Shown: positions 778 to 44,402, numbered from the stretch's first letter. The stretch: DNA of 64,000 nt from Owenia fusiformis (GCA_903813345.2 CAIIXF020000001.1:22320001-22384000); one strand, 5' to 3'. The notes: a model not told the origin generated them from the letters alone. Made by a program: numbers and translations.

Positions 778-3486
778 TAGCAACATTACATGCATTATGT
801 AAGAATTTCTAAATATACATTAGAAATACCATCTCACTGTATAACTATGACCCATCTTGTGTTAATCTCTCGGAATGAGGAGTAGAAATAGATTTTATGG
901 AAAGTTTGAAAATGCAAAATAATTCTGAATACTTATAATGAAAATGTACCTTGGTTACATCTAATAACAATGTCTCTTACAAAAGTAGCATAAAAATATA
1001 GCTCAAAACATAATGTTACATACCTTTATCATAACATACATGTACAACCTCTGCTTATGCAGGTATCGTCTCAAAATTCATTCAGAATTTGAAAATACAT
1101 GTGATGGAAACTAAACATGGCCGCCAACACTGTACAAAAAGACCTTTACATGTATTAGCAATGACCAACCATTTTTTCAAACTGAAAAAATATCATCAAA
1201 CTGTACATTTTTGGAAAGCTTGGAGTGTGAGTAGTATAATACAATAAGAACCAATCTTCTATCTTGTTGCATTAAATATTAATGAGGGTCCAAAGAAGGC
1301 AACCCTCAAAAACCCTGTTTTCTTTTTTTCTCAAAAAGTGGCTAAAAATGACCCCAACTTAAACAAGCTATAATGTCATCACTATTTCAGCTAAAGCTTT
1401 GTGAAATGGCTCATTTAATAGTGCAATGTCATCCCTTTACTCCACTTTTTACAGAATGACTCTATCTGGAACAGGATAAAAGATATACCCATGAATAGCT
1501 AGCTACCTCACACGTTTTTCAACAATTTTACAGAAAATTTGTCAAACTTATATCATAAAGGATATAAGTTTTCGCTTTTCGCTATTCCGCTGAATAGAAA
1601 AAAGTAGTATTCAAAAATGAATGTAGTCCCAACACAATTGTGATCATGACGAGTCAGTAAGCTAGTATGTAGGCACAGTTGTAATCTTTTTGCAATGGCA
1701 ACATGACATTTCTTCTGAAAATGCGTTTATTTGGGTTATCTGAAGGAAAATTTCGAGTCAAGTGGCGTATTAATTTTGCCTTCATTTTTGTGAATTTCAA
1801 TTTGTGTCTGCAGAGAGAGGGGGTAGTGTCACAATTGACCAATTATTTCAAAAAGTAGATGATTGGCCCCTATTGAGTTTAGTGTCAAGATGTAGCTTAG
1901 ACATAGCTTTAGAACCTCAGATAGGCCAGTGAGGCCACATAAATCCATAACTCGAGATAAAAAGTCAGGCGTTTGCCCTTTTGCCCATTGACTAGTATGG
2001 TGACGTGAATTAGGGCAGTTTTGCCAAATAGCCAACAGATCACCTTTATATTACATCAAAATGCAAAACATTCCTCGTAGATTGATATTATTGCTATCCT
2101 ATATTGATTTTCTCAAGTTAAAGTGCGCAAATCGAATGTGACAATTCCCACATGTGAATATTCGCTCCGCCATATTGAATTATTACAGGGAAATTTAATG
2201 CTCATTTGAGACCAGATTTCTCTATTTTTGCTTTATATTATTCACAAATCAATCGAACATTCATGATGGGTACATATTTAACCCGATTTGGAGGATATAT
2301 TTAATCACGAGCCGCCGCCGAAAACGCAAAATAATCGCAAATGAAAACTTACCAGTCAATTTTCTGTCATATTTATCATGTCAATTTGACTTTTGCACTC
2401 ATTTGCAGCAACTATTACCTCTTTACTAACAATCCGGCACATAAAATTAGGGATCTATTATGTTTATCTGGGAGAAAAACCACGAGCCAAATCATGTCTA
2501 TTTGTGGGGTCAAGTTTCTGACCAACTTTTTTTTCGCGCCAAAACGCGCCACCTATACGTTGGTCATTGCTACATCATGTATGCTATTCCCAGGAAACAT
2601 TTCCCACACTATCACAGTTCGGGGTACAGAAAACGTTTGTACCTAGCCATGCGGAATGTATTCGACGATATTACCCCTGCTTTTCGGTAAATCTGGTTCC
2701 TTAATGAATTTTGAATCTTAAATGAGATTCCACTTGACGATGCGCGCCAATTGCAGAATTGAAAAGCGCAAGCTACATTTTTATGTTTCTTACTTCACTG
2801 TGGCTAGTCGATCTATGTGGATGCAGTCATTTATATGTAATGTATTGTGGGTACTCGCGTACATTATAGGGAATGGGATCATTGCAAAAATATGACAGCA
2901 AATCGAGGTAAGTGATCTCAGAGTTTCTATTTAACATTGTGACTTGAAATCTTGCACACATATTCAATATACATAGTATGACAATGTGTGAAAGTTTCAG
3001 CTAGCATATTCCTGTTATAGGGAAGATATTTGAAAAACATTTCGTAAACGTCAACATATATGTATAAAATGGATGCACCTATGTATCATTTGGATTCAGA
3101 ACGGTAACAAATGGATGCTTTAATAAATTATACTTTTATCATGATGGTTTATTTACTGATGGACAACTGGCCAGATTTTCTTTGTATCCATTGTTTGGAT
3201 AAACATTCCTCATTCAGTAAAGTAATTAGCCACCCCATTATAAGTAGTCTAAAGGCACCCTCATGAAAAATTGAAAATACTATATATAAACCCATCAACT
3301 GGAAAATGCCATTACAGATGAAATAAAGGACCCACGGTCCTGTGCTCACATAGTGTAGAACCTACAGAGGAAGGAATGTATATCCTGATTTACAAACAAA
3401 AGTATTGGTAAATATGAGATCAATTAAAGATGAGTCCTTTGTTGTTGGTTCAGATATGATTTGTTGTAGTCAAAAGAAAAACTATG

Positions 3487-4364
3487 AATTTGACCTAGGC
3501 CTTTTAGTGTTCAAATTTTGAAGGAAAGTAGATTTTGAGAGACGGCTTCTATTGTAGATTCTTCTTAAGTTGGCTACATCCAAGCTGTATCTAGTGTTGT
3601 GTTGTTACAATTGATAATTTTCTCAAGCCCCAATGACTTAACATGGGATACCAAAATAGCGATTTTTGAGATTTCAAAAAATGCCATAACTTCCGAACGG
3701 GAAGTCGGATCAAAATTTGGTTTGCAGATTCGGATTCCTTGGACAATTTTACACATATTTCATAACTTATACATTGAATTCCAAGAACTTTTTATTGTAA
3801 CCTACTTTTCGGATGCCATATCTCAAAAACGGTAAGAGTGATCAAAAACAACTTGCCTGTAGGGATTAGCTTTTTTCCAAGGAACATGATTAAAAAAACT
3901 GAGCAAAAATATTCAAGGACGACTGAGAAAATCGAAAAAAATGACAAAGTACTGGATTTGACCTAGTTCTTGACCTTTGACCTGGTTTAAACCTGATTAC
4001 ACCCAGATCTGGACTTGGACCTGAACTGGACCTTGACTTGGACCTGGACTTGGACCTGGAAATGGACTGGACTGGTATTTTTTCAATCTTTTCATCACTT
4101 CTCTTGACTTTCTATAAGGCTATCATAAGATCGATTTTCGCGAAATTTAAAAATCAGCAATTTCTCGGAAACCGGGCGAACTTGGGAAATGGCGATGATA
4201 GGTCAAATAGACATTATGGATATGCATAAAATGAATGTGGAAATGACTCAATCCGAAGGGCAGTTTTAATTTGTGCAACCAATGTTGACAGACGGACGGA
4301 CCAACGGACGGACGGACCAACGGACGGACGCCTGGTCGACCCCATAGTCTCACTGTGTGAGCCA
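3487..4364 (+). mobile_element. Helentron/DINE-1-like (HINE) non-autonomous element nested in the Transib-like element
   Basis: Internal (GACCTT/GACTTG)n repeats, GACG/GACA microsatellite at about 4287-4330 and a 3' hairpin CTCACTGTGTGAG followed by an A-run. AAAACTATG is present on both flanks (3478-3486, 4365-4373). Confidence 0.65.
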
Positions 4365-4519
4365 AAAACTATGGTTTTATCGCTGATACTGTTAATTTGA
4401 AAAACGGGTCCATAACATGTAATGATGACAATGAAAATGTTGAAATTAGGTACGCTAATGAAGTGAATTCAGAGCAAAAGACCCATCGACCCACTGGAAT
4501 ACCCACAAATCAAGTTTCA

Positions 4520-5095
4520 TAGCCTTGCCAAAGTCGGTCTATTTTACTTATCTTGATTTCTATTATGACTGCCTTGTACCCAAGAGAAAGCCATGTGCTT
4601 TACCGACCCAATGTTTTTGTCGGTAAAATTTGACAAATCAACGACGGCCCTACTTTGCCTGACTAGGTCTTCATGCATTCCCATCGCGAATTAAGTTTTG
4701 ATTTTGAATCAACATTAAATTGCATGATTTCATTTAGACGAGTATTAATGACTGCTTACATTCCAATGTACATTTAATAACATAATATATTGTAACTCTC
4801 AAGAAACACTCGATCAGATCATTGAATTTCAAGTCCTAGACGGGTAGTTTGCTTTTTTATGCAGGTCAACCTGATAACGTTTTGATTGGTCAATCAGCCT
4901 GAAGTCACACATTGTGTCCATGTCCATATTGTCAATCAATATGGTTTTGCGATACCCTTAGGTAGCCTAGGTATTATGGGAATCTCGGAACCACTGAATA
5001 AGTTAGCATAATATCAGCGATGATACATTGGATTGTACAAGGTGGTAATAATTCAAGATCAGATAAGTAAATAAATACCGACTTGGGCAAGGCTA
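4520..5095. mobile_element. MITE nested in the Transib-like element
   Basis: Imperfect TIRs of about 60 bp (TAGCCTTGCCAAAGTCGGT... / ...ACCGACTTGGGCAAGGCTA). 9-bp TSD with one mismatch: CAAGTTTCA 4511-4519, CCAGTTTCA 5096-5104. Confidence 0.75.
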
Positions 5096-6339
5096 CCAGT
5101 TTCAGAGCCATTTACATTCCTTGAAGGTGGCAATGAGCAGCCAACAGATGGACCATCCGTAAATCTTGATGATTTTGTCAGCTCAGCTGAACGAGCCTCC
5201 AGATTCCTTGAAACAAATGACCATAATTCAAGAATAATATTATCTATTTACAATTTTTTTAAATCGTGGTAAGTGGAATTTTTCCAATTACCAATACAGC
5301 ATTATTATTGTTTTCAGACACTGTTGATTAAAATATTAAAAATACACACATTCAAAATGATTCAATTGAAATCTAACCAGTCTGTTCAATGAATCCAATC
5401 AGAACGTCTTCTAATCCACATGATACATCATAATTAAATTGCTTTTTTAAAGCTGATATTTCATACCATAACTCCATATTATAGAACGCATTGTATTTGT
5501 ATTTTACTTCACACAGACATATATGTATTGTATGTGAAATAATTATATTACTTGACTTTTTTATTCCCCATTACAAGGTAAACCTATGGCAAATTATACA
5601 TACCTTCTCACAGCTATGAGCGAGATGATAAAACTGGTCAAGTGAACTCGTTTCAGTTATCTATTCTCCGTAAAACTATCAGCGAATGTGTGTTTATAGC
5701 GTAGCTGTGGTTTTGTAAATCAATGAAGTATGATATACACGGATGAGTAAATATAGATTATTTAAACAGAAGTGCAAAATTCTTCCATTGAAAAGTACAG
5801 AGGCGGGTACTCACGAAACATTACATGTGCCTGACTGCATCCACATAGATCGACTAGCCACAGTGTACTTGGTGAGTTAGTTTCTAAAAAAAGATTTTTC
5901 GGACTTCAGTTGGGTCACTCTCTGTTGCTTGTTCATCCTTCTGCCTGTTAATCCTGTTTTGATTATCTACCTTCTTGACACCGTTGTCTATCCTGCTGCG
6001 CACAATGCACATATCAGCAAAAGGTGTTCAATGAATATAGAGAATACCTTAACCCGTCCCCTCGTTTGAGAACAACTCGACTAGTTGCAGCCAGACTCAA
6101 CTATGTTTGTTTAAAAAATACCTAGTTATGAAAAATGGATTTACTCTTTCAAATAAAAGGTTTACATTCATGGGCGTGGCCAGGCATAAGGCAGGAAATA
6201 CTTATTCAGTTTTTTTCAGATAAAACTTTGAAAGTGAGGTCACAGGGTAGTATAATTTTACCTTTAAATTACGCCTCTCTGAACTTGACTTTTCCCAGCT
6301 ATATGAATTTGATGATGTTAATTTAGGCTATGCATATTT

Positions 6340-7780
6340 TATTGAAAAAATTCAAAGTCTCTATAATGAATGCTTCCCGATAACTCCTAAATGTATTAAA
6401 TATCACTTCAACAATAAAAAATCTTACAAAAAGTATAAACGCATTCTAAGGCAAACTATTCAACATGCAGAAAAACTACATTACAAAAATTTTGATCAAA
6501 CATCTGGTAATATAAAAGACACCTGGACACACATTAATGAAATATTAAACAGATGAAAGAAATTGCAAATATCACTTGATAAATTTATACATAATAATAA
6601 AACAGTTACTAATCCCAAAGAAATGGCTAATGGTTTTAATGATTATTTTGTCAATGTTTTAAATAATTTGGCAAAAACATACATAATTCTCATAAAACAT
6701 TTCAACATTATTTGAATAAAATGTCTACTTCTTTAAGCCAAAGTTTATATCTATGACGTGTAACTTTTGACGAAATAAAATCAATTTTAGATAATTTGAA
6801 AGATAAATCTGCTGGAATTGATGATATAAAGCCTATAGTTATCAAAAATAGGAACTTGCTATCCTTGCATATTTGGCTTCAGAAAAAATAGTTCAACTTA
6901 CTTGGCTATTCTTTCTTTTTAAGAAAATTTACTCAGCATTAGATGATAAACAGTTCTCTATTGGCATATTCTTGGACCTCAGTAAAGCATTTGATACTAT
7001 TAATCATGACATTTTATTATCTAAACTCAATTTTTGTTGTATTAGAGGAAAAGCTAATGATTGGTTCAGAAGTTATCTAAATAATCGAAAACAAGTTACT
7101 TTATATTGAGATAATAATATTAAATCTCAGGAACAGTCAATCACATGTGGAGTTCCACAGGCACTACCTATTTTGTTTATTATATATCAATGACATTATG
7201 TGTTCAAATTCTTTGTTAAAGTTGTTTTTGCAGATGATACAAACATCTTGTGAATTAAATTGTGAACTCTATAAAATTGATGATTGGTTTTGTGCTAATA
7301 AGCTATCTCTTAATGTACAGAAGACTGAATTCATGATATAAAATTATACAACCTGCAAACATAAAGTTCCACCAAATATTGAAATCAAACTAAGAAATAA
7401 TTTAATAGAGAGACTTCAATCAATCAATTTCGCAGGGATAATTATTGATGAGGATTTAAACTGGAAGGAACATATGAAAAAATATCACTTAAAATATCAA
7501 AACTCATCGGGATACTATTTGAAAGTAGACATAAGCTAAATAGAAAAACACTACTATCGATTTACTATTCTCTTATATACTTCAAGAATGTATATGTGCT
7601 TGGGGAAATGCAGGCAAAACTGCGACGAGTTCAATATTTAAACTACAAAAACGTTTTTTAAGAATTATTACTTATAGCGAAAATAGGGAACATACCGGGC
7701 CGGCCATTCTTTAAACAAAAATTCTAAAATTTACAGACATATATAACTTAATATTCTACTACTAACTTACAAATGTATTA
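6340..7780 (+). mobile_element. Degraded CR1/L2-group LINE, reverse transcriptase fragment
   Basis: RT motifs in broken frames: IGIFLDLSKAFDTINHDILLSKL, WFRSYLNNRKQ, GVPQ, LLYIND, FADDT, WFCANKLSLNVQKT. Many stops and frameshifts; boundaries approximate. Confidence 0.88.
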
Positions 7781-9939: not shown

Positions 9940-11064
9940 TCATTGAATCTTAAATCCAAGCGATTGAATCACTTCTCTGCAGTCTGTTATATTTTGAATC
10001 ATGTTTAGTTCCACGGGGCTCAACTGGACCATCCATTTAGTCGGGATACTAGTAGAGTTCCTACTCGTTCCATATGTCCCTCCAGAAAAAGTTGACGTGT
10101 TTTTCCCTATCCAATAACGTACTGATTGGTGGAATGGTATGTCCAATGCCTTGTACAGTTTTTGAGCGTTAGTTAGAGTATCATAAGCAAAGTCTTCATA
10201 AATTACCTGTTTGATTAACGGTTTCAGATCAAGCTCTTTCCTCTTGGCTTTCAAATCCTTTATAAAGTTTATATTAGTTAAGCTATTGTAGCAAAGAGAT
10301 TCCATATCTTTTTTCTTAAGTTCCAACGCCAGGTTTTTGTAACTGCGAGTCTCATGATTCCTAGAGTTTAGGATTCCCCTCGGGTCCCTCGCCAAAAAGA
10401 GAATAGCGGTATCCTTCCCAAAGTATGGAGCAATTTGACCAATATTTGCTAAACGAATAATCTTTGAAGCAACAATGTCGCTATCCACACATACCTTAGG
10501 AACATCATTTAGTATTTTCACATTCCGGAAGATGGCTTGCCATCTCCAACCATGCATTGATGTTACTTGCGAAAGATATGAGTTACCACTGAAACGACAA
10601 TTCATGATTTCTTTTAAGAATGCCGGTCCAGCAACTGGCGTATCAATGTCATAACGTTCAACGACTGCCTTGAGAGGCTCGAACATATAAAAGATATTTG
10701 GATTCTGCTTGAACAACTCGGCAAAAAAACTAGAGCCACTCCGCCTGTAGGTTAATATAATTATTTTTGTAATGTTTTGTGCTGTCATTGTCCCTGCACT
10801 TTGAAATTCTCCTTTCGTAGTCGGGATTGTTCTTTTCGAACTGTTATCTTTCGACGCCGGAATGATTATTTTCGAATTCCCAATTTTACTTCCATATCGT
10901 GGGACTGACACCTTCCTCAGTGGAACTGGATCACCAGGGTTTCCAAATGGCTTGGAATATGTCGAACTTATAATATTTATCCCTCCAAACAAAAATCCAA
11001 TTAGTACACCAACAAATGTTAGTGTTATGTAAACAAAAAACTTATTTTTTGTCATTTCTATCAT
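9940..11064 (-). CDS. Golgi carbohydrate sulfotransferase (CHST1/CHST3/GlcNAc6ST-like), single coding exon
   Basis: N-terminal TM helix (FFVYITLTFVGVLIGFLFGGI), 5'-PSB loop TYRRSGSSF, YMFEPL, KIIRL, 3'-PB ARDPRGILNSR and YEDFA. First true ATG at 11064, with a splice acceptor just upstream (about 11110). Confidence 0.92.
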   Translation of the reverse strand: MIEMTKNKFFVYITLTFVGVLIGFLFGGINIISSTYSKPFGNPGDPVPLRKVSVPRYGSKIGNSKIIIPASKDNSSKRTIPTTKGEFQSAGTMTAQNITKIIILTYRRSGSSFFAELFKQNPNIFYMFEPLKAVVERYDIDTPVAGPAFLKEIMNCRFSGNSYLSQVTSMHGWRWQAIFRNVKILNDVPKVCVDSDIVASKIIRLANIGQIAPYFGKDTAILFLARDPRGILNSRNHETRSYKNLALELKKKDMESLCYNSLTNINFIKDLKAKRKELDLKPLIKQVIYEDFAYDTLTNAQKLYKALDIPFHQSVRYWIGKNTSTFSGGTYGTSRNSTSIPTKWMVQLSPVELNMIQNITDCREVIQSLGFKIQ

Positions 11065-14000
11065 TTGGCACGACTTAATGAGAACCTGCCTCAATAGAAC
11101 TCAAACAATCTGAAGACTACATGTACATATAAGTTGGTCATGAAATAATTCTCTTATATATGAATTGATTTTATGTTGAACGTCATTAAAGCGACTTAAC
11201 GGGGTCATATTACCATATACTGGGGATTACAAAAGGATAGGTGGAAACGCTTTTAAAGCCGTGAAACGTCCTCTGGTACTTCAAAAGAAGAACCATAGCC
11301 GTTACGTATAGCCAGGTATGGCGTAACCAAAAAATAATCAGAGAAAGTCACAAAAATAACTGGGCGTAGCTAGGCACGAGGCAAAACATCCTTTAGAATA
11401 GAAATCTTGAATGAAAATATGAAATGAAATCTAATAATATGATTTCCCTTGATTAACATGAAAATTAACAATTAAGTTAATGAAATTACTACTTGTATAG
11501 TAGATAGTGAAGTCGAAGTCGACGTATTGGGCACAATAAGATAGCATTAACGAATTTTAGGAATTATATTAGAAATATTATACTGTGCTGTAAAATCTTT
11601 TTTCTTTATGTCGTCGGACTCAAGCAAATTCCCTTTGTGTATCTATCTAATTTCAATAGATGATACAGTACAGTATCGGTACAGTGTGAGCATTAACATT
11701 AACATCCTTGATATAACGGTATGGAGCCAGGAATTTTTATATGTCAAAATTAAAATCCCCACATGGGTGTAGCACCTGTTACGCCTGTTTTGCGTTCTTG
11801 TTTCCCGTATACCCCCATCAGGATAAAAATTCATGTTGAAATAAGTCATCTGATTTAGGTAGACCAACAACACGGGTAGGGATCGAACAATTTGTCCGCT
11901 ATGACGGAGTGTGCATGCTATTTGTCATGAAAACGTCACATTTTATTTTTTAAACTCATGTTTCGTCTAATAAAGCAATGAGTAAAAGCTATAGAAAACG
12001 GCTTCAGAATATATGTTCAAACATAAATCTGAAGGTATTCATGATGCAATGTGTCTTTTTACTTTTTTAATAAAAAAATAATGTTGACATTTTTTGTCCG
12101 CTATGACGGAACTGTTTTACGTTTTACATTTTGATTTTAATTTTGAAGGGTTGAAATTTAAAATAAGGCAACACATTCCTCTTCCAATTTCAATTAATTT
12201 TGTCATTTTTGCATCTCAAATCAGTTATTGATCAGTCACCTCATTTTCAGAAAAATGAAAATTGAAGGAAAAAATTGGAAACGTTTTATACTCATCAGGT
12301 ATGATTTACACAAGATCTAGATCTGTTCCTTCTACATGCAATTCTCTTTAATGGGTTTGCCCTGCTGCAGAAGCACTCGATTAACAAAACATCTTTAAAA
12401 AATTGACCCAGATTGTTAAGGCGGAATTAGACCGAACGATCAATTTTTCCAAGTTTTATGTTGAATCAAACTTGATATACAGATTGGATCAACCCCGATT
12501 TGCCATCAATCTTGATTCAACCTTGAGAAATGTTTCTATGTATGATACTGGTTTAGTTCGAATTCGAAAAGAGGTTGGGGAGAGGAGATCGAATCGTTCA
12601 TCTTCTTTTAAAGGTTTTCGGCTGAAAACTTGCCTTACCAAAAAATGATCCTAGAGCCCACCCCTCCCTAGATATGACCCTGAGAATTGAAAGCACTTCG
12701 GCACTTCGGGCAACGTTGGTTCTACACATCAGAATAGCCTTAGTCAGACCTGTATTTTTCTATGCAGGCAGATATTTCATGATACCTTGCGCTCAACAAA
12801 AAAGAACCAAAGAAATTTTTAATCTGCAATAAAAAACCTGAGCTACTAATGACTCGGAATTTATGAGCACCCTGTATCAAGGGCCTTGCTCTAATTTATG
12901 ATGAGATATTTACAAACTAGCAAATACACTTATATGTGTATAAATTAGTCTTAACATCAAGAACAATAAACAGTGTGTACTGTAGGCACTAGATTATTCA
13001 GTTTTGGTTTGCCAATATAATTATTTATTATTTGTGTATGGCAGCTGATTCGCTCCCTCTAGTAGTCGCAGCTTGGGAGGGATTAAGAGGGAACTTGGTT
13101 CGTGTGAGAGATTATCGATTATGTATTAATGCATTTCAGTAAATGGCTGGGCAGTTTTATGTAATAATTATTATGAGTCACACGAATGAAGATAGCAGAA
13201 AATGCGTGTGAATTCAGAAATTCCTGTCGTCAGAATTCATAGGATACAAATGCGTAACTAGGTGATCATGGTCATTATGTAGAAATCTAGGTGACACAAA
13301 CATGTGAAACAATGGCCAGTATGAGTAGTGAGTACAACAGGATTGTCATTTAGGTGACATTTTGTCGTTTTTATTGCCGTACTCTCTTATTGTATCTACA
13401 GGGTGGGCCAAAAAACGCCACTTTTTTTCAAAATCCTATAACTTTTTTAATTTTTGATACAAAATCATAATTTGCATACCAAATGAAACTTGAGGATGCT
13501 ATCTAGTCATGGATTATGAATTGTACACTTTTACTTGAAGAAAAGATGTCACCAGCGTCTCACTTAAACATGTGGTGTGCCATGAGAAATAAACATAATT
13601 TGCAAAATGTTCCTGACTGATACGGCCTGATAACCATCAAGCTAATAGCCCTGATGCAAACCCCAGTGAGTATAGGGTATGGGAAGGTCTCCAGACCCTC
13701 CAGGAGATGGTATGAAGGCACCCAATCTAAAATATTGCCCAACTAAAGCTGCCAATTAAAGGTCGAAAGAAACATTTCACCGATATATATCAGCAAGGCA
13801 ACTAAGACTAAAAGCTATCATCAAAGAGGGTTTTATCATATGTTTAACAGATAATGACCACCCATAGTCAATGCATGTAAGTCAAGCTATAGCTATGTAA
13901 ACCAAACCTAGTCAACTCATGCAAATTCTTATGAACGTATTCAGGCCCCTCAGACACTTTTCTTCCAGGGGTGCGGTTTTTACTAAAACAGAATTGAATG

Positions 14001-19680: not shown

Positions 19681-21877
19681 TTAGATTACTATGAATCTAT
19701 TTACAAATGGAAGTTTTTCCTTGTTACACTCAGGTGCTCCTTTAAATACATGTGTCTTGTTATGGAAACAACTATAGCCATTCAGTTTGTAAGGTATAAA
19801 TCTGGAACCAACTTTATCCCACGTCCCTATATCATTGCATGTTCCTCCATAGCAACCAACTACGGGGAGATTTTCATCTAGTAGCCCCCAGTTTCTTTCA
19901 TTTTTATATGACATGAATCTTGGATTGAACCTTTTGTTATCATTCCTAGGATGCCATATATGATAGAATGGACTATGGACCGAAACGCCCCAGTAGTTAG
20001 TATTGATAAAGGGCACGCCATATTTGTGCAAACGACAGAAGAATCCCCATTCGACATAAGCAAAATAGATCATCCCTTCATTATACCCTCCGGAGCACAT
20101 CCAAGCGTCCTTGGGGATGGCAAATACTCCTATTGCAGCCCCGAAGTAATCTTTAGTCGCCCTGTAGGGAAACCAATTATCAAACCAATAGGGGATGGCT
20201 TTCCCGTACTGCTCAAGGAACCGATAGGGATCTTTGACGATTTTCTCGTAGTCGAATCTCTCAGTGTCTCGTCTCCCACTCCACCAGACTTTGTTGATCT
20301 CAGGCCAGCCTTGTTGTCGTTGAATCTTCAACCAATGAAAGAATGCTGGTCCTACGAGTGTATCTTGATCTATTCTGAGTATCATTTCTCCATGTGCAAA
20401 CCTCGCTGCTACGTTAAGAGCGTGTACCTCAGAGAGGGGCGATTCTGCTTGTTTTGCTGCTATCTCAGGGGAGACTTTCACCCAATATATTTTGCAACTC
20501 GGGTGATGGTAATACACCGGTTGTAACCAGTCTATTTGATACACCGGGGATTTCGAGTTCCAATCTGTTATTACCACTTCGGAGACGTCGCTGAGGCCAT
20601 TCCGTTCCATGCCTGTGCAGACCTCGCGCAGGGTTGTGGCCAGACGCTCCATCGTTGTCCCCCTATAATTGTCGTTACGGGTCATCAATATAAAAGACAA
20701 CTTCATCTGTTTGTAGGATCTGATATTGTAGTGAAAACCTGAAATGGAATAAGCTGATATTTAGTATTAAACATTTATTTATTCAGATATATTTTAACAG
20801 TGGCACTCTCAAAATAAGTATATAGTATATTATGGAAAGTTATATGTAGATGAAGTGATATGTAGATTAAAAACATATTCCTACGTCTAAGAAGTACCAG
20901 AATAAAAACGTGTTAAAATTACCTTTAAAAAGGTTTTACTGTAAAGAATTAAATAAAACACTCAAAAGGGTAGTATTAATAACAATAGTATTTTTCTTCA
21001 TTTCATGGTATTTCATTTTTCCCACTCGTTGACCACTGTCGCCCAATTGGTGACCATTTTGCCAACTTTCTGACAATTTTGCCCATTTGGAAAAATAAAT
21101 GTAGACAGGATTGTTTGTGAAAACTGTTTGACATACAACCTGTTTATCAAATATGTTTGATCCCAGGTTTCATCGATTTCCCAATCGGTGTAACCAATCT
21201 GAACAGGGTCCATAACCTTTGAATTGATTTTAAAATCAGTTTCAAATAAAATGTCTCTCTGTGCTTAACATGTAAACTAATCAAATCTATTATTTTTTCT
21301 ATTATTTTCTCTTCTTCATAGTTTGTTACCCATTTTTTGTAACAACATGCCATTTGTTACAGACGTTGACGGTCAAACGCAAAACGCCTTGCGTCAACCG
21401 GTGAATGTCGAACACCCCTCGCGGTGGTGACAAAATAAGAAAAGACACAGTCATTCACAGTAAAAAAAAGTTGTTAATCTGAACATTATGTCTTAAGTAA
21501 TTGCAAATTACAAAATTGCAACAATTGTAACAGATGCCAATACCGAATAAAACGATATATAACATACTCGTACATGTACTTCTCTTTTCACTTGCAAAAA
21601 AAGAAACATATACATATCAGATACACGATATGTGAATTAATAAATTTCTGACAATGGATTTTCGGATTCTACTTTTCATTATATCTATTATACCACGTGT
21701 ACCATTGGCCTACCTTGGGTTCATATGATACTATGGTTTTCGGATCACTCAAATGGTTTACTTACTTGCTGGCTTATATATCCAATCACGAAAAAGTTTC
21801 ATGACAATTATTAGAATTATAACAGAAATCACACAGATGTACGGCCTCTTGGGAGACCTGCCTAGACATTTGATCAT
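19681..21877 (-). CDS. Type II membrane GT-A glycosyltransferase (GT2/GT7-like), two exons, about 389 aa
   Basis: Exon 1 (21766-21877): MIKCLGRSPKRPYICVISVIILIIVMKLF..., a TM anchor with a GTAAGT donor in phase 1. It splices in frame to exon 2 (19681-20738), which has RNDNY, VVITDWNS, ALNVAARFAHGEMILRIDQD (DxD), GGYNEG and YHIWH. Confidence 0.85.
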
Positions 21878-23297
21878 TTTACTAATGCTTCCTTTGGTTT
21901 AATAGATATTGAACTATCAAAAATACGTTGATTTGTCGGTGATCCTTATTAAATGTTTCCATGTACTCCTGTAATTCATATAGGACAAATACAGATTTTG
22001 TTTAGATTAAACTGTTTGAACTATATAAGGCTAAATATCATAATCCATTTCTCTACATTAACCCATTGTTAAATATACTAGGTATCCTGTGTGAATGAAA
22101 CGTCAGTAGCGAATGTTACCCTTATCTCTACCAATGATCTGTCCGGCATCGATTTAAATAATGAATTAATTTTAGTTCTACAGTGTAAGTCAAAGGTACA
22201 TATCTGTTTCAAGTCAATATTTTAAACACGTGCATTTTGTTTTGTGTTTTTCTGATAATATTTTATTTTACCTTCAAAGCACATCCATCTGTTCGCTTTT
22301 TATGAAAGACGTTTGGCACAAACCGCAAATAGCAGTCGGTCTTTTGAAACTTATATACATTGATTGATGTTTTTGTTAAAACAATAAACGTGCAATTAAT
22401 GAGATTATGTGAAAGGTATTGATATTGTTATTTGTAAACCACGGAATAAGGCCCAATTTATAAACAGAAATAACATTATAAGAATTTATCGTATGATCTG
22501 CAAAATGAAGCCCTCTGAAGCCCTCTGATTGGTCATTTCTTGTGCTGTACCATATTGCTATTGAAATTTTCCCCATTGATCATCTCCGTAGCAATAGGAA
22601 AATATTGATACGGAGGGGACAATATCAATTGCATTACTTCGCCTTCGTCTCGTGCCGGTACATAATTTCTCGAGCACAATATATCCTGTATTGCACTTCA
22701 AACCATTCAACAACTTATAATATTTTGACATAAGCTTGGAAAGATCCCCCTTGATCTTCTACTTTCAAAATAAAAGTCTGCATGTCGAGGTAAAGTTGAT
22801 TGATTATAAAGTTTTCTCATTAAATAAGTGACTTCGTACATCTTCGTGAACATTCCTGTTTGAGCATGACCATATGTGGAGTGCTTCAGGGCTCCAATTT
22901 AAAACAGGGCTCCATTTAAAACAAAGGGCAGGTAACATAATGACTAGTTTAAGGCTGCGTAATGGCTAATTGTACAGCTGTACAGAGTGTCCCGAAAGTA
23001 TGCGACCCCCCCCCCCCATCCACCCTCCCTAGGCAAACATATACCCATTTCACCATATTGTGTGTCATATATCATTTCAAAGTGCAAAAATAAATTGTGT
23101 GGATTTCCTAGTTTTTCTATGTAAAATATCACGCTCCGTAACAGCGGACAAAATTTTCGATACCAGCCTGTGATTCTAACAAAGAGGCTGGGTCAACATG
23201 CCCATTATCAATTTTGAGATAAATCATGACAAAAATAAACTGTCTTGCTAAGTATATGTGCATCAAATCTGTACACGGCTTAGATAGGCGTTTCAAA

Positions 23298-24860
23298 ATG
23301 ACTGACTCAAGGCATAGATGGCCAGTCTTAATGTGTGTGATCTTAAGTATGAGTTGTGGAATAAGATCAAAGAACGTATTGATCTACCAAATGGCGTCTC
23401 TGAGAAACTCCAGGGTGAGTGCTATGGAAACAATATCAGAGATATTGGCTCAAGCAGGACATAACATCAGTCTTCTGGTTCACACCGAGTATGACCCAAC
23501 GGTAAATGTGAGGCTACAAGGTGTAAACATTATAAGACATAAATACCCAGACGATTTACAGTATTCTGTAGAAGAAGGCGTAATTCAAGAAAGTCTCGTT
23601 ACCCCGGTGTTAACACAGATGGATCAATGGATGGGGAAGGGACAGGTACTTGATTCCTACACATCAAAGGTATGTCCGAAATTGTTGGAAGACCTAAAAC
23701 TGATGAGACGTTTAAAATCTGCAAAATTTGATCTCCTTATTACGGATATGTTTCATTTTGTGTGCGGGGGCATTCTTATGGACTATTTACAAACGCCTAC
23801 CATACTATGGGCCAATGCTGGATTTGAGATAAACTACGACTGGTTAACTCCGAACTTTTTGTCACATGTACCAGTTTTATATTCACCATATGGAGACTCA
23901 ATGACTATATGGGAGCGATTCTGGAATGTGATCTTGTACGTTGGCATAGAGTACCATAAACCAGTTTTTTCCGAGAGAAAACTCGAACTTATGACTAAGT
24001 ATGGACCAGCACTGGGACTGGTGCCTAATTCTAGGGACTCGTTCAGAAATGCAGACATTTTGTTCGTGCAGACAAGCTTTGCATACTTTTACCCAAGACC
24101 ACTGATGCCAAACGTTATCCCAGTGTTAGGATTGAAGGAAAAGAAATGCAACAAATTAGATGTGACGCTTGAAAAGTTCATCGAGGGCTCTGGCGATGCA
24201 GGCTTTATCGTTTTATCATTCGGGTCCTTGCCAAGGGGCTTAGTGCCAAGACTGAGAGAGATCTTTGCAACGGTTTTTTCACAATTACGGCAGAGAGTAG
24301 TATGGAGATACGGCGGCCCTAAACCAGATAATCTAGGAGATAATACATTGACATTGCCCTGGTTGCCTCAATATGACCTCCTTTGTCATCCAAAAATAAA
24401 ACTATTTATCACACATTGTGGAGTTTCTGGTTCGGCTGAAGCAGTCTATAACGCAGTACCTACGATTGGCATCCCTTTCTTTTACGATCAGTACCAGCAT
24501 TGTCGATTACTTACGGAACGACACAACATGGGCATTACGATATCCAAAACCAACATCAGTGTTACATCCATAACGTGGGCCATCAACAAGGTGATCGGAA
24601 CACCAGAGTACGCACACAATGCTGCGCTTACAATGAAGTTGATTAAAGATACACCGGTGAATGCATCACACACTATTAGATACTGGAGTGAATATGTCAT
24701 GAAACATGGGGCAAAACATCTTAGATCCCAGGGATTGGACAACCTAAGTTTTGCACAATACTTTCTTTTGGATATAATTGGATTTTGTCTTATCCTTTCC
24801 TCGTTATTGGCCTATTTTGTGTATCTGATTGTAACGAAAGTTTGCCTCTCCCCGTCGTAG
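23298..24860 (+). CDS. UDP-glucuronosyl/UDP-glycosyltransferase (GT1, UGT family), intronless
   Basis: Signal peptide, FDLLITD, PRPLMPNVI, SFGS, UGT signature WLPQYDLLCHPKIKLFITHCG...IPFFYDQ, GAKHLR and a C-terminal TM. The ORF is open from 23226, but the ATG at 23298 fits the signal peptide best. Confidence 0.95.
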   Translation: MTDSRHRWPVLMCVILSMSCGIRSKNVLIYQMASLRNSRVSAMETISEILAQAGHNISLLVHTEYDPTVNVRLQGVNIIRHKYPDDLQYSVEEGVIQESLVTPVLTQMDQWMGKGQVLDSYTSKVCPKLLEDLKLMRRLKSAKFDLLITDMFHFVCGGILMDYLQTPTILWANAGFEINYDWLTPNFLSHVPVLYSPYGDSMTIWERFWNVILYVGIEYHKPVFSERKLELMTKYGPALGLVPNSRDSFRNADILFVQTSFAYFYPRPLMPNVIPVLGLKEKKCNKLDVTLEKFIEGSGDAGFIVLSFGSLPRGLVPRLREIFATVFSQLRQRVVWRYGGPKPDNLGDNTLTLPWLPQYDLLCHPKIKLFITHCGVSGSAEAVYNAVPTIGIPFFYDQYQHCRLLTERHNMGITISKTNISVTSITWAINKVIGTPEYAHNAALTMKLIKDTPVNASHTIRYWSEYVMKHGAKHLRSQGLDNLSFAQYFLLDIIGFCLILSSLLAYFVYLIVTKVCLSPS

Positions 24861-28600: not shown

Positions 28601-31600
28601 ATAGATAAGACTGATGCGTGGTACCACAAAGCATGGCAAACTTATTTAATTTTCATATCACAGATACAATCAAAAAGAGAATGGAAGATATCGTATTGAA
28701 ATAGTAGAAAGAAGTCTCAAATGAATATATATCAGTACTGAATTCATCGTTGTAAAACAGATGAGACTGATGCATGGTGCCACAACGAATGGCAATTTTT
28801 TAATATTTTATTTTAATATTATATTTTATAATCAAGATAAAATATAATATTATTTTTATGTTATATTTCATTTTAATTTCACATATAAAATTACCTATAC
28901 ACTGTGGACAACACTCTCCTTCTATAGTAATAGGATCTTCACAGTCCATCTTGGGACAGATAGCTTGATGGCATTTCATCTTGCCTCTCTGAAATATAAA
29001 ATTAACTTAAATTTGAATAAGCTGTACGTATGGATACTTAAAATTGCTCCAGTAGCAAGAAAAATCTGGTTGTAAATTAAATTTTTAAGATAAAATCAGT
29101 TCAATGTTGTTTGGTGATATTCTAATTTCATGAATCCCATGCCATGATAATAATATTTTAAGTTAACACTATACCTTGCAGCTGCATGTCGTGCATGGGT
29201 CTGACTCGTCGGGTAGCCAGCTGTCCCCATCATTACAACCATACTTCCCCGACACATCTAAAGATGGCAGGATTGCATTCTCATGTTTATCATTCATGAT
29301 TTCACGATCACTGACTCCTTCACAGTCATTTGGGATGTGAATCTGAAGAGAAAGTATAGTGATAATGATAATATGCTTGAACAGGTCCAAATGAGATTGC
29401 GACTCAAGTCCAAACATGTATATCCTTGAATAGATGTGTGCCACGTTTTGTATATATCCATAGTAGTCCATTATCAAAATAATTACAAAAGTTCGATAAA
29501 TATGTTAGCAAAAGAGTAAAAAACACAAAAAGTGAAGCAAATGAAAAATCTCCATTATCCAAAAATTGATTCATAAACTAACATTTACCTTAGCCCTTAG
29601 TTCTCCACCAAGATAGGCATTTGTCTTCACTTGGATGAATGCATTATGACCATCTAGTGTCCTCATCATAGAGGTTGATAAATCATTCACGTACCCCTGT
29701 GCCTAAAACAAAAAAATATTCATCCAATGCCAAACCATTGCATAGTTGATCCTCAAAACTAAAAATCATATTAATTATTTATCAGGCTTGTATTTGAATC
29801 TTAATCTGTTCCTAATGCAAAATATTTAAAATAATGATTCCAAATTACCATATTTCCAACAAATCCCTTTAGTTGAGTAGGAAGTATATCACCAGTGGTG
29901 GCACCAATCTCAACAATTCCATGCAGATGGGGACTCAGTTTCTCGTGGCTCAAGCCCTGCACAATGACACTATAGCGTAGGTTACAGCGGGAGTCAATGG
30001 TTACCCAAGCATGCCCCGCAGCAGGGGTTGGCACTTTGGGATCCAATGAAGCTCCATTCAGTATAACAGGGTCTACTAAAAAATAAAGAATCGAAGTGTC
30101 AGGATTTATGTAGAAACAAAAATAATAAATCTATTTTTTATGATTTCTTGCGATATCTGTCTCTGATATGATTAATGATAAAATTTCTCACCTATATCCA
30201 TTGAGATTTTGTCATCAAAGAGTGTTTGAGTTATCTGACCCCTTAACTCACTGACTTTGTGTTTGGACGTCTTGATGTTTACAAATAGACCATTTGTAAG
30301 AAGGAGGTGGATCTGTCGACCATTTAACTTCTTCAGTATTCCTCTAGCCTGAAATTAAATATATATGCGCAAGTGCCAAAGAGGAAAGGACAAAAAGTAT
30401 TGCAGAACACAGCAAGAAAAGGAAAACATCTAGAGTACACTGGTCATAAGGAAAACAAACCCCAATTATCACAAACTATGACATTATATCACATTTCTGT
30501 TCTCCTCGTTCTGTCTTTAGGTGTCATAAAATACATAGAGTGATCAGATATCAGCGAAACAAGAACACAAACAATAATGGTTTACATTTTATACAGAGTC
30601 ACATATGTCTCTGTTTTATACAATGCTGTTGAATCACCCTATGAATGATTGGCGGACATTAACAAGTTGTATTATATATTTAAATCATATAGAGTCTATA
30701 TAATAGAGTTCACTTACCATACCACCATAATCTGTTTTCGAATGTTGTTTGAATTTCTTGGTTAATTTGGCAACTCTTCGTCTTCTGTCACGTTTGTTCG
30801 GTGCACCCTCGATTGAAAGCTCTGTTAACTTACTCTTCAAGCCCTCCACTTTGATCTAACAAAACAGGTACAGCACATTGTTAGCTTTGTGGAGACAATC
30901 ATAACGTTCGTTTGTTGATTATAAATCAGCTTCAATTTTGTTGTAATTGTGTTACCTTATCATCCACGTTTGAATGGTATCGTCGAAATACATAATAGGG
31001 AATAGGGTCAGTTGGATAGATAAATGTGATATAATCATTCTTTCATTTCCATACATACCTGGTAAGTGATATATCCATTGCTCTTGAGTATAAAGATAGC
31101 AGATCCACCTGCTCCAGTTTCTGTTTGTTGCAGAGCATCATACCCGGATAGAACAGCTTGAAGAGCTGAAATATGTAGAACGTACATGTCACAAAGCTGA
31201 CACGTGTGCAATATACCATACACAGCTGATACATCTGCAGTGTATCGTATAGCAGTAACAAGTGCATCATGATATACCATGACATCTCACTCCTATCAGC
31301 CCTGAGATGTTTCAGGTGAAACAGAAAGATGCTATGAGTATCAGAATGTAACAAGTGCAATAAATCTGATTCGAACATGACTGTATTCACGCCTTCTATA
31401 AACTGTAAACAAAGTCAACATTTCACCCGGGGTATATTCGCGAACAAACCCCCTGGTAATACGTGTAATGTGTGACGTCATAACGGCGGGCAGTAGTAAT
31501 GGCGAACCATAATGAATATTCGAAACATTTTGGTGAGTTTTCATGTTCGAATTGTAATATAGACCTCAGAGCAGGTGTAATATTGTCGAATACACCCTGC

Positions 31601-34600
31601 AGGGCTAGGCACAAACGTTTTCTGTACCCCAAACGACCGAAGGGAGTGTATTCGACAATATTACCCCTGCTCTTCGGTCTATATTTCTTAAATAAATCTG
31701 AAACATGTGCAATAAGTCATAATTGAATATTTACCATTGCATGTAATTTTAGGTGTTATCTTTCCTTTCATTTGTTTGCCAGATTCAGTTCTAATGAGAA
31801 TTGTTATCTTCCCTCTCGCCAATTGCTTGAATTCTTGTTTCTGTAGCTTCGACCAAAGCTCGGCGAACTCAGCATCCTAAATGCAGAAATAAAGATAATT
31901 TATTTTATTTTTTAGATTTTATTTATTATTGTATTGACATAATATTTCAGTAGGATAAAATACGATGGTTGAGTCTAATTCAAAATGAAAGGGTAACATT
32001 TGAAGGAAGAAGCAGATAATGATCCAAGTACACAGAAAATAGCATTTAACATTATAAATATATGTATGTGTGCAATACTTACATGTCTTGATACGATAAC
32101 ATTTATCCTCTGTAAAACCTCCGAATTCTTCATAAAGTATACTGAAACTATGGTTTTTGCATCTGTAAAATACAAAAAGAATACTCAAAGAAATATTGTA
32201 TCCAAACAATAATTACTAATCACATGTATTTTTCATGATTTGTAAATTGCATTGAAATGAATTAAACATGATGACAACTATTTTTTGAAGAAGGTGCTTT
32301 ATTTGTTTTACCTGCTTCTTTATCCAACAGTCCGTTGTGTCTTACAATAAAACTGAGACTTCCATCTCCTCCAACAGTCATCATGACCAACGCACCACTT
32401 CCGTCACCCACATCTGAGGACAACACGGCGCTTAACGTCTCTGAAATCAAATAGCAGAAAGATAACGTCGTTGAAATCAAATAAATTATTGGATTGATTT
32501 TAACTAAAATGGTATACTATCTTACCTTAAACGCAATGCAACTTGCGGCTGTCGGCTATTGGATTAACCTACTATTTTATGACCCAACTCATTTAAATAT
32601 GAATAGTACCTGCGACTAATCCATTTGAGTTTGCCATAAAAAGAATGTTAATTTGGTAGCCGACAGCCGTTATTTGCATTTGCGAATACTGTACTACCTT
32701 AGGCTGGATATATATGATATAAAACATATACATATAATTTATAGACATACCATCTTCCAGAGCTCTGTGTTTTATTATTTCGCCTCCAAGTTCACCAGCT
32801 TCATGTTTTTTCGTAACAATTCTCACGCGCATGCGTTGATTATTCAAGAACCGCTGATATATAGTTGGCAAATTATTCCAAACTCCACAGATCTACAATA
32901 AAACACAAGTTTACAAGAAAGGAGAATTTAGTTCCCTGATTATTTTGGAACGTAGTGACCTTGACATCATGAAAAGCATCTGAAAGTTCAAGTGCCAAAA
33001 GGGCAGAGTATTATAACGAAATACATCAAGAGCTGATCGAGTAGCTTTGAAACCAAGCATGAATAAAACAAACCCAAATATCTCAAAATATAATCAAAAG
33101 CACACATGAATATCAATTTTATTTTGTAAACACGATTGACGTTTGCTTACCTTATTATCTTTTTCCTTAGTTGGTTTGACCACATGCTCGTACAGGACAT
33201 TGTCGTTGAAGTCAACAAATTCTATCCGGGTTATTTTGTTAACATTGGCGTAGAATGTAAAGTGTAAATTACTTTTGAAGAGCGTAAACGCTCCTCGGGC
33301 TGACCCTTTAGTCCTTGTGGGCGACTTCATAGTTTTGCCCAACAGAAGTGCCATGTACTCGGTTCTATGGTAATCATGTAGCATTTCCTTCCCGTCGTTC
33401 ACCTCGGTCGTATAGTCATATACGCCATCGACAGATACACTCGTGGTTTCTTCCGAAAATCCTGAAAGTGATGAGGTGACATCTTTCGATAATGTTCTAA
33501 ACTCTTTGATATGCCATCAAAACTTCAAACTGAACTGAACCATGATCAATAAATAAGTTATCCAATGCATGGAAACTGAATAAATATTCATTGAAGTAAG
33601 ATGGCAAGTCATTCCGGACCATTTACAACTAGGCTGGAGCCAACATCTTTTTCTTCATTTTGACATACTAATAAAATAGTAAAAGTAATAAAACACGAAA
33701 GTTAGAATAAGAAATTAAGAATGAACAAAGGGCAAGATATGGGTATATTCCCCTAAAAATGTTTGACAAACGGAAGTTCCCTTGTATGGAGTTGATCCAA
33801 AGCCATAGTTATTCCAATTATCTACACTACTATAGATAATTGGCAAAGTTCTAGTGACTTTGCTTAAGACTGACTACAATCGTACCTTTCTGGGGGCAGG
33901 TTTTGCAGCACTGTCCCGGCAATAGCTCTGGAGTGTCACACTTGGGTACTGAGCATTCGTCCTTTATATTTTTGCATATCACCTTTCCCTTGCGTTGTAA
34001 AATATTTTTCTTCTCGACCTAAAAAGAAGACCATGTTTTACTTTTGAATGTACAAATATGTACCCAATGGGTTCTGAAGCAATAATTAATTTTGTTAGTT
34101 CGGGGAGTGGGTACAGTTGACGCAGCTTTAAATGGACATTGAACAGCAAAATCAAAACAAACACACAAAAACATGCTGGTTAAAGGCCATTATTAAGATG
34201 TCAGTATGGCAATGTTAATTCCACGGTGCAACCAGCTATTCACTTGCATGCTCCAAACACAAATTTCTCTTATGAATAGTGGATAAGAAATAAGAACAAA
34301 TTCAAGTATTAAACCAAAATTAAACTGGAAGATTTTTAAAAGTACACCAAATACCACACGCTCGTCGTTACCAAATATAACATCTAAACCGTAAACATCC
34401 AAGCATTGTTTGATGCGAAGTGTTATTTTGTTCTAAAGTAGTGGGTCTTTGGAAGGGATATGTACACATCATTTACGTCGCAAGAATTCCATTTCACGCA
34501 GCGCTGAATTCAGTTATTAGACTATCAAGCAGAATTGAGGCATGTCGACCAATTACAAAATTATGTCATTATCTCATTTTATTGATGCTGATAAGGTATG

Positions 34601-43818: not shown

Positions 43819-44271
43819 TCAATGTTTCTTTGTTTTCTCCAGCGGAATATTTCCAGGAGGTGCGATAAAATAGTCATCTTCAGTCACAACTGCATTTCTC
43901 ATAACATCTTCACGAGTATTGTCCATTGTTACCACATCTTCTCTGAGAAAGAGAGGATAATTTTCTAAAACAGTGTCCATTGGCTCAACATTTGTAGTGT
44001 CTACAAGACTGAGTTGGTCAGCAAAACGTATCGCTTTTTGAAGCCTTTCTATAGCCTCTTCATTGGTGAAATCTACTAATGCTTGCCTTTCCAAATGTTC
44101 CACTGTTTCTGTATCAATTTTTGTAAATTGTGGTAGCTGTGAATCACCAATGGCCGACCATGTTGGTGCCTTCGGAATGTAAGAGGTGGATCTTTTACTA
44201 CATGTAAATCCACATAACATTGTACGAGGCACCCTTATGAACATTTGTTTGACGTTCCTTAGAAATTGCAT
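43819..44271 (-). CDS. gatc: Mitochondrial glutamyl-tRNA(Gln) amidotransferase subunit C, intronless
   Basis: Basic N-terminal presequence, HLERQALVDF, AIRFADQL, VDTTNVEPM, LREDVV, NAVVTEDDYFIAPPGNIPL. Confidence 0.95.
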   Translation of the reverse strand: MQFLRNVKQMFIRVPRTMLCGFTCSKRSTSYIPKAPTWSAIGDSQLPQFTKIDTETVEHLERQALVDFTNEEAIERLQKAIRFADQLSLVDTTNVEPMDTVLENYPLFLREDVVTMDNTREDVMRNAVVTEDDYFIAPPGNIPLEKTKKH

Positions 44272-44402
44272 GATTGTACTTTATAAAAGATATGTATCGA
44301 TAAATATAACACTTTGCGGACAATTTAGAATATTCCAATAATGTAGTCTTCTGTAGATCAGAGTAGCAGGAGTTCAAAAAGTTCTTGATGATTGTTAATA
44401 TA

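Follow-up and report, generated by a model that had tools for sequence, protein, structure and literature searches.

A stretch of DNA of 64,000 nucleotides (nt) from the annelid Owenia fusiformis (GCA_903813345.2, CAIIXF020000001.1:22320001-22384000), hereafter the window, carries at positions 2796-5865 a copy from a cut-and-paste family of DNA transposons that is abundant in this species. With moderate confidence, we regard this family as most likely belonging to the Transib superfamily, the branch of the CACTA/EnSpm-Mirage-Chapaev-Transib (CMCT) clade that makes target-site duplications (TSDs) of 5 bp; it does not look like a RAG-like (RAGL) transposon. The superfamily placement would follow solely from the sequence of the element ends and the length of the TSD. 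The element and its boundaries are as follows:

2796-5865, plus strand: whole non-autonomous element, 3,070 nt, or 1,440 nt minus two nested inserts
2791-2795, no strand: left copy of the TSD, TACTT (flank sequence, TSD-length test)
2796-2858, plus strand: 5' terminal inverted repeat (TIR), starting CACTGTG, its outer 34 nt equal to those of the other arm (repeat search, alignment)
5803-5865, minus strand: 3' TIR, ending CACAGTG on the plus strand (repeat search, alignment)
5866-5870, no strand: right copy of the TSD, TACTT (flank sequence, TSD-length test)

The window has the composition of AT-rich eukaryotic DNA (GC 0.29-0.39). A repeat search of it pairs the two termini as inverted repeats of 63 nt that are 87% complementary, and alignment matches the arms at 55 of 63 positions (blastn, 87.3%, E 4e-16). 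The terminal 34-mer occurs at two sites only in the 64-kb window, a count that was reached in none of 100 shuffles, and the terminal 18-mer, with up to 3 mismatches allowed, returns the same two sites and no others. By 34-mer, 18-mer and blastn alike, the window thus holds no further copies or solo termini of the element. Both ends read CACTGTG inward, and the two arms show no spacer asymmetry. The element is flanked on either side by an exact TACTT; when flank-repeat lengths of 1 to 10 were tried, lengths 1 and 5 fit the flanks and lengths 2, 3, 4 and 6-10 did not, and the chance of a 5-mer flank match is 0.0015 from base composition or 0.0012 empirically. A first-pass annotation of this DNA had claimed 63-bp TIRs with intact 34-bp termini, an inward CACTGTG at both ends and an exact 5-bp duplication of TACTT, all of which are borne out here, and we agree with it that the copy has no nonamer, spacer asymmetry or catalytic gene.

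That the element belongs to an abundant family is seen in sequencing runs, for which we used Logan contigs of three runs (X1, X2 and X3) and raw reads of a fourth (X14) aligned to window positions 2296-6365. A run search returned 13 entries of a single organism that contain parts of this DNA. Summed word depth and read depth per bin do not equal copy number and are read here as at least hundreds of repeats. In X1, the summed contig word depth is 38,000-95,000 over the element's own parts vs. 87-261 in the outermost flank bins, and X2 and X3 show a similar pattern over element and flanks. In X14, 66-572 raw reads per bin fall on the element's parts vs. 0 over 5968-6239; 481 of 31,887 reads are at least 99% alike to the window, and 96% continue into unlike sequence. 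The X14 reads, which carry the same species label, are mostly less than 95% alike to the window, and none lies on the unique right flank at 5968-6239; the X14 sample may represent a lineage diverged from that of the window. Exact scans with the terminal 24-mer gave 0 matches in each of metagenome_contigs, genome_contigs and viral_contigs. Short strings from the terminal sequence occur in 285 papers, and the 15 listed are unrelated works with matches of primer type.

The internal anatomy of the copy is that of a short element interrupted twice. The parts between the TIRs include two nested inserts and a non-coding 3' segment:

3319-4363, no strand: nested insert 1, about 1.04 kb, very abundant repeats (contig joints in X1, X2 and X3)
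4520-5095, no strand: nested insert 2, 576 nt, resembling a miniature inverted-repeat transposable element (MITE) (repeat search, flanks, contig joints)
5329-5802, plus strand: 3' subterminal non-coding part, high-copy in the sequencing runs (depth bins)

We regard 3319-4363 as an insert because other copies of the family are without it: one contig each in X1, X2 and X3 joins 3318 to 4364 with AGG between, and this AGG is Arg69 of the family open reading frame (ORF) in other copies. Nested insert 1 holds (CTGGAC)n and (GACG)n microsatellite-like tracts as well as the repeat with the highest abundance in this DNA (bin 3656-3791, X1 word depth 1.2 million); its bins 3656-3791 and 4200-4335 have summed X1 word depths of 0.9-1.2 million, and its ends are weakly inverted-repeat in character (GCTCACAYAGTG). 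Nested insert 2 is bounded by TIRs of 26 nt at 4520-4545 and 5070-5095 (TAGCCTTGCCAAAGTCGG...) and lies between the two copies of a 9-bp duplication, CAAGTTTCA at 4511-4519 and CCAGTTTCA at 5096-5104, identical at 8 of 9 positions, so placed that the QVS codons of the family ORF appear twice around it in tblastn. A TSD of 9 bp presumably points to a Mutator-like family. Many contig joints run from 4565-4573 to 5043-5050, indicating shorter relatives of nested insert 2 elsewhere. With the boundaries set here, the length of the element minus its inserts becomes 1,440 nt, which corrects an earlier estimate of about 1.6 kb.

Excision of both inserts in silico opens a frame of 129 codons, and a frame as long arose in 19 of 2,000 shuffles. 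Its two larger pieces in the window (P0001 and P0002) were searched separately. P0002 finds P0003 (one of 5 candidates) at E 2.9e-17, with 79% identity over 100% coverage; P0003 is a protein of 204 aa described as "unnamed protein product, partial [Owenia fusiformis]". P0001, searched against 1.84 billion representatives, gives 7 matches at E <= 0.001, and its relatives among them are P0003, P0005 and P0008. The remaining four (P0004, P0006, P0007 and P0009) were set aside as repeat-driven matches: P0006 and P0007 contain PKD repeats, the Pfam matches of P0009 are weak and unrelated, and P0004 has 6,060 aa with 24 repeated stretches; the Pfam scan covered the first three. The 90% cluster of P0003 comprises 7 members, all of them O. 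fusiformis gene models, with P0008 as an eighth model, and the cluster members are spread over contigs of five different sizes, from 34.9 to 42.5 Mb. P0005 comes from a 1,200-nt contig of the European Nucleotide Archive (ENA). A further search with one of the models, P0010, against metagenome_contigs gave 111 pattern matches and 0 confirmed. The eight "unnamed protein product" models of O. fusiformis (P0003, P0008 and P0010-P0015) are probably fragments of the transposon ORF and not host genes.

By tblastn, P0010, of 230 aa, aligns with the window in three frames as five collinear segments with identities of 79-83%:

3111-3239: residues 1-43 of P0010
3256-3318: residues 46-68 of P0010
4364-4525: residues 70-123 of P0010
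5099-5263: residues 120-175 of P0010
5251-5328: residues 172-197 of P0010

Taken together with the insert boundaries, these segments delimit the remnant of the ORF in the copy:

3111-3318, plus strand: ORF remnant, residues 1-68 of P0010, with a frameshift between 3239 and 3256 (two segments, 79% and 83% identity)
4364-4519, plus strand: ORF remnant, residues 70-121 of P0010, 81% identity (tblastn)
5099-5328, plus strand: ORF remnant, residues 120-197 of P0010; frameshift around 5255, end of similarity at 5328

The copy therefore carries at least two frameshifts in the family ORF. Residues 198-230 of P0010 have no counterpart in the window by tblastn. Because these residues are missing relative to longer members of the family, the copy is internally deleted after 5328, and the alignments show family members extending beyond this point, which we accordingly take as the internal deletion breakpoint. 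The claim of the first-pass annotation that this copy is internally deleted thus holds; it is a TIR-bounded, non-autonomous member of a multi-copy family. P0014 ends ...NFFLKSW, much as the window's reading ends ...NFFKSW; this shared ending suggests inheritance of the frameshift within a non-autonomous subfamily, not an origin at the locus.

The family ORF has features of its own that bear on what it may encode. In six of nine models, ...RLFHGKFLR is the C-terminal end (models ending in GKFLR include P0010, P0011, P0012, P0013 and P0015), and we suspect an exon boundary after GKFLR because the Arg followed by a stop is what a splice donor, AG/GTAAG, gives when read in frame. P0010 shares 67% identity overall with the diverged P0005, and 31 of the 34 final residues agree, which suggests that the conserved C-terminal part is a functional domain. 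Near the N-terminus lies a CxxC-x12-H-x4-H motif, which is kept within the remnant of residues 1-68. The most economical reading is that the family ORF would be the first exon of a transposase or of an accessory gene.

Should the element be mobile, it would be movable only in trans, since the copy encodes nothing functional. By analogy with Transib and related named families, a DDE transposase supplied by a longer family member would bind the inverted termini of 34-63 nt and cut at the CAC ends, and the excised element would be joined to its target with a stagger of 5 bp, whose repair would leave the TACTT duplication; the chemistry may be of the hairpin type. A fairly recent insertion would agree with the perfect 34-nt termini and the exact TSD; the source copy would then already have been defective and insert-carrying.

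The elements of CMC proper (Chapaev, EnSpm and Mirage) have TSDs of 2-4 bp, Ginger elements have integrase-type termini of the form TG...CA, hAT transposases combine a BED finger, a DDE core and a hAT dimerisation domain, autonomous Transib members encode a DDE transposase of the Transib/RAG1-core type, and non-autonomous Transib-type families are common among invertebrates. The wider CMCT clade has CA..TG termini in common and TSDs of 2-5 bp (PMC12730594), and within it CAC...GTG termini together with a 5-bp TSD are described as the hallmark of Transib and RAGL (PMC1131882, PMC7204232, PMC12730594). In 2005, Transib was the only superfamily known with 5-bp TSDs, and CAC is conserved at positions 1-3 of its TIRs, for which the consensus is CACAATG-N23-AAAAAAATC with CAC invariant (PMC1131882). 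In the window, both ends of the element show the Transib type of terminus, and its one TSD has the 5-bp length of Transib and RAGL. We file the family as most likely Transib because of its CAC ends and 5-bp TSD, because repeats of 2-4 bp are excluded and because position 3 is C. The non-autonomous Transib families TransibN1_AG, TransibN1_DP and TransibN1_SP (PMC1131882) are similar in their CAC...GTG ends, a heptamer of the CACWRTG type and an exact 5-bp TSD, as well as in being multi-copy non-autonomous derivatives with TIRs of tens of bp. Unlike them, the present family has an annelid host and an orphan ORF of 230 aa. A leech transcript reported in 2010 aligns with the HzTransib core (PMC2996935), and the Transib group is therefore not new to annelids; our literature search returned no paper on an annelid Transib family by title.

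A number of observations weigh against the Transib assignment. Transib TIRs carry an A-rich nonamer 23 or 12 bp past the heptamer, with A conserved at nonamer positions 5-6 (PMC1131882). Here, positions 31-39 read GTCATTTAT in the 5' arm and GTCAGGCAC in the 3' arm, and positions 20-28 read ATGTGGATG, so that an A-rich nonamer is found at neither spacing; the nonamer consensus derives from 21 families of insects and sea urchins, and other Transib may depart from it. Transib is reported to favor GC-rich targets (PMC1131882), unlike the AT-rich TACTT of this copy, in which one of five bases is G or C, an observation of low weight as it concerns one site. The TSD was read at one copy only, and hAT5 and Ginger2 elements also give 5-bp TSDs. 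Nor was the family linked to any transposase. No Pfam family exceeds threshold on P0003 or P0010 (the best, GDH_2nd, has E 0.03-0.07), a profile of the ORF retrieves no chain of solved structure (E up to 10), and the AlphaFold model of P0010 is unusable (mean pLDDT 34.8). Among 582 and 8 candidates, no protein longer than 268-358 aa contains the ORF, which is weak evidence. Pfam likewise assigned no family to eight short ORFs of the element (a sub-threshold NACHT-helical match at E 0.015 was treated as chance), among them one at 5373-5570 on the minus strand in the 3' subterminal part, and Rfam gave 0 matches over the whole window at the gathering threshold.

These points leave room for other readings, of which one, unlikely but deserving some weight, is that the family belongs to another CMCT lineage, be it Chapaev, EnSpm/CACTA, Mirage or an undescribed one, that makes a 5-bp TSD at least at this site. 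CACTG-type termini are found throughout the clade, the reported TSD range reaches 5 bp, and Chapaev, EnSpm and Mirage are, like this element, cut-and-paste elements with TIRs (PMC12730594). The lack of a Transib-type nonamer and the AT-rich target, unlike the GC-rich targets of Transib, would sit well with such a lineage. However, its CAC termini aside, the copy departs from CMC proper: duplications of 2, 3 or 4 bp are impossible at its flanks, where the 5-bp repeat is exact, and 5 bp is the Transib/RAG value within the clade (PMC7204232, PMC1131882). The contrast with Chapaev-type TSDs drawn in the earlier annotation accordingly stands at this copy. The same end sequence and TSD, which fit a known clade, make it rather improbable that the family represents an undescribed superfamily with convergent CAC ends and 5-bp TSD, whose transposase would begin with the orphan 230-aa exon. 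Such a superfamily would account for an ORF that has no relatives outside its own family among the 1.84 billion representatives (three of the seven matches being the family itself) and none in Pfam or among solved structures, and whose C-terminal third is far better kept than the remainder. But the N-terminal regions of transposases are often lineage-specific, and a first exon without relatives is therefore a poor guide to the catalytic core.

The RAGL alternative, in which the autonomous partner would be a true RAGL transposon with RAG1L and RAG2L genes, is in our judgment very improbable. Autonomous RAGL copies carry the two genes in convergent orientation between their TIRs. The RAGL transposons of protostomes, with their non-autonomous derivatives (Martin et al. 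2020, PMC7204232), resemble the element in their CAC ends, 5-bp TSDs and TSD-flanked non-autonomous TIR pairs, and non-autonomous RAGL elements with TSDs occur in an oyster and several deuterostomes (PMC7204232). Their TIR consensus, CACTWMCAAACKTYKBB, has the AAA of TR2 conserved at positions 8-10, and their TSDs are invariably of 5 bp (PMC7204232). The element, by contrast, begins CACTGTGGCTAGTCGAT, which agrees with the consensus at 9 of 17 positions, namely CACT and five later, mostly degenerate positions, and replaces AAA with GCT. Moreover, the family ORF gives no RAG1 zinc-finger or other RAG1 Pfam match at E up to 10, neither this copy nor the window holds a RAG1L- or RAG2L-like ORF (seven of the eleven window ORFs of at least 120 aa were scanned and are host genes or unassigned), and the family is very abundant in Owenia, whereas non-autonomous RAGL pairs are few (PMC7204232). 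The earlier designation of a Transib/RAG-like family thus survives in part: the CAC...GTG ends and the 5-bp TSD speak for it, no RAG-specific feature was found, and the label RAG-like is unsupported for this family. The word annelid is absent from the main texts of three RAGL surveys (PMC7204232, PMC10462144, PMC9435367). A hAT5-type element, in which the CxxC...H...H motif would be a BED-like zinc finger, has a slimmer chance still. Families of hAT5 with 5-bp TSDs are known among the animal hAT lineages (Kapitonov and Jurka 2007, cited in PMC12730594), so that TSD length and animal host are shared, and the motif lies near the N-terminus of the ORF. The third terminal base, though, is always G in 22 hAT families and C in recombination signal sequences (RSS) and Transib (PMC1131882); it is C here, as judged by a rule that predates the description of hAT5, and Pfam, run on P0003 and P0010 with E up to 10, detected no zf-BED or hAT domain over the first 230 aa that these cover. 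Ginger2/TDD does not fit: its TSD of 4 or 5 bp (PMC10045372) agrees in length, but the termini here are CA...TG. Transib accordingly remains the assignment that we prefer.

The flanks of the element raise the separate question of an empty site. A contig of 578 nt in X1 aligns with 0 mismatches to 5866-6307 only, stopping exactly at the element boundary at 5866 and leaving 134 letters unplaced. Were these letters to run leftward from the bases before the left TACTT, they would end about 30 nt inside a small repeat whose edge lies at 2688, a place where one would expect a de Bruijn contig to break; an empty-site allele is thus one candidate explanation of the contig. It may thus reflect an insertion polymorphism, and we count it as unexplained and not as evidence. 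No joint from 2795 to 5866 is among the 15 of 284 joints listed, which is no evidence either way. The small high-copy repeat just upstream of the element, at 2617-2688, has a partner at 31570-31678, with matches in both orientations at 88-92% identity, and accounts for the high depth of bin 2568-2703. The right flank at 5866-5960 is also a moderate repeat (position 5909 is covered by four other X2 contigs, with a depth of about 4,300, and by 131 X14 reads), so that the element could lie within another repeat.

Elsewhere in the window, three long open frames with Pfam matches are assigned to the host:

9943-11100, minus strand: host sulfotransferase, long single open frame (PF00685, E 3.5e-8)
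23223-24857, plus strand: host UDP-glucuronosyltransferase, long single open frame (PF00201, E 3.8e-81)
43822-44280, minus strand: host GatC-like exon, single open frame (PF02686, E 3.3e-13)

An intronless ORF of 359 aa lies at 19681-20760 on the minus strand; among Atlas clusters it lies closest to glycosyltransferases of bacteria and phages (scores 0.98), and Pfam assigns it no family. It may be a glycosyltransferase that this animal acquired by horizontal transfer, or one that evolves rapidly.

As for its significance, the element is a decayed copy of a fairly ordinary mobile element, most likely of a known, Transib-like type. For routine repeat annotation it adds an invertebrate family of Transib-like, MITE type. 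A very abundant Owenia family is now defined by precise ends and an orphan ORF of 230 aa, and the eight "unnamed protein" models that are probably its fragments should be masked. A bolder interpretation, that the family is a Transib/RAGL-type transposon still able to move in an early-branching annelid, with an autonomous partner that starts with an N-terminal domain without relatives, has in our view little chance of being correct. If it were true and the partner carried a RAG2-like gene, RAGL transposons would be extended to Annelida. The 34-nt terminus and the exon ending in GKFLR provide a handle for asking about Transib/RAG-like transposases in annelids, a question that bears on the spread of the ancestors of the V(D)J recombinase among protostomes.

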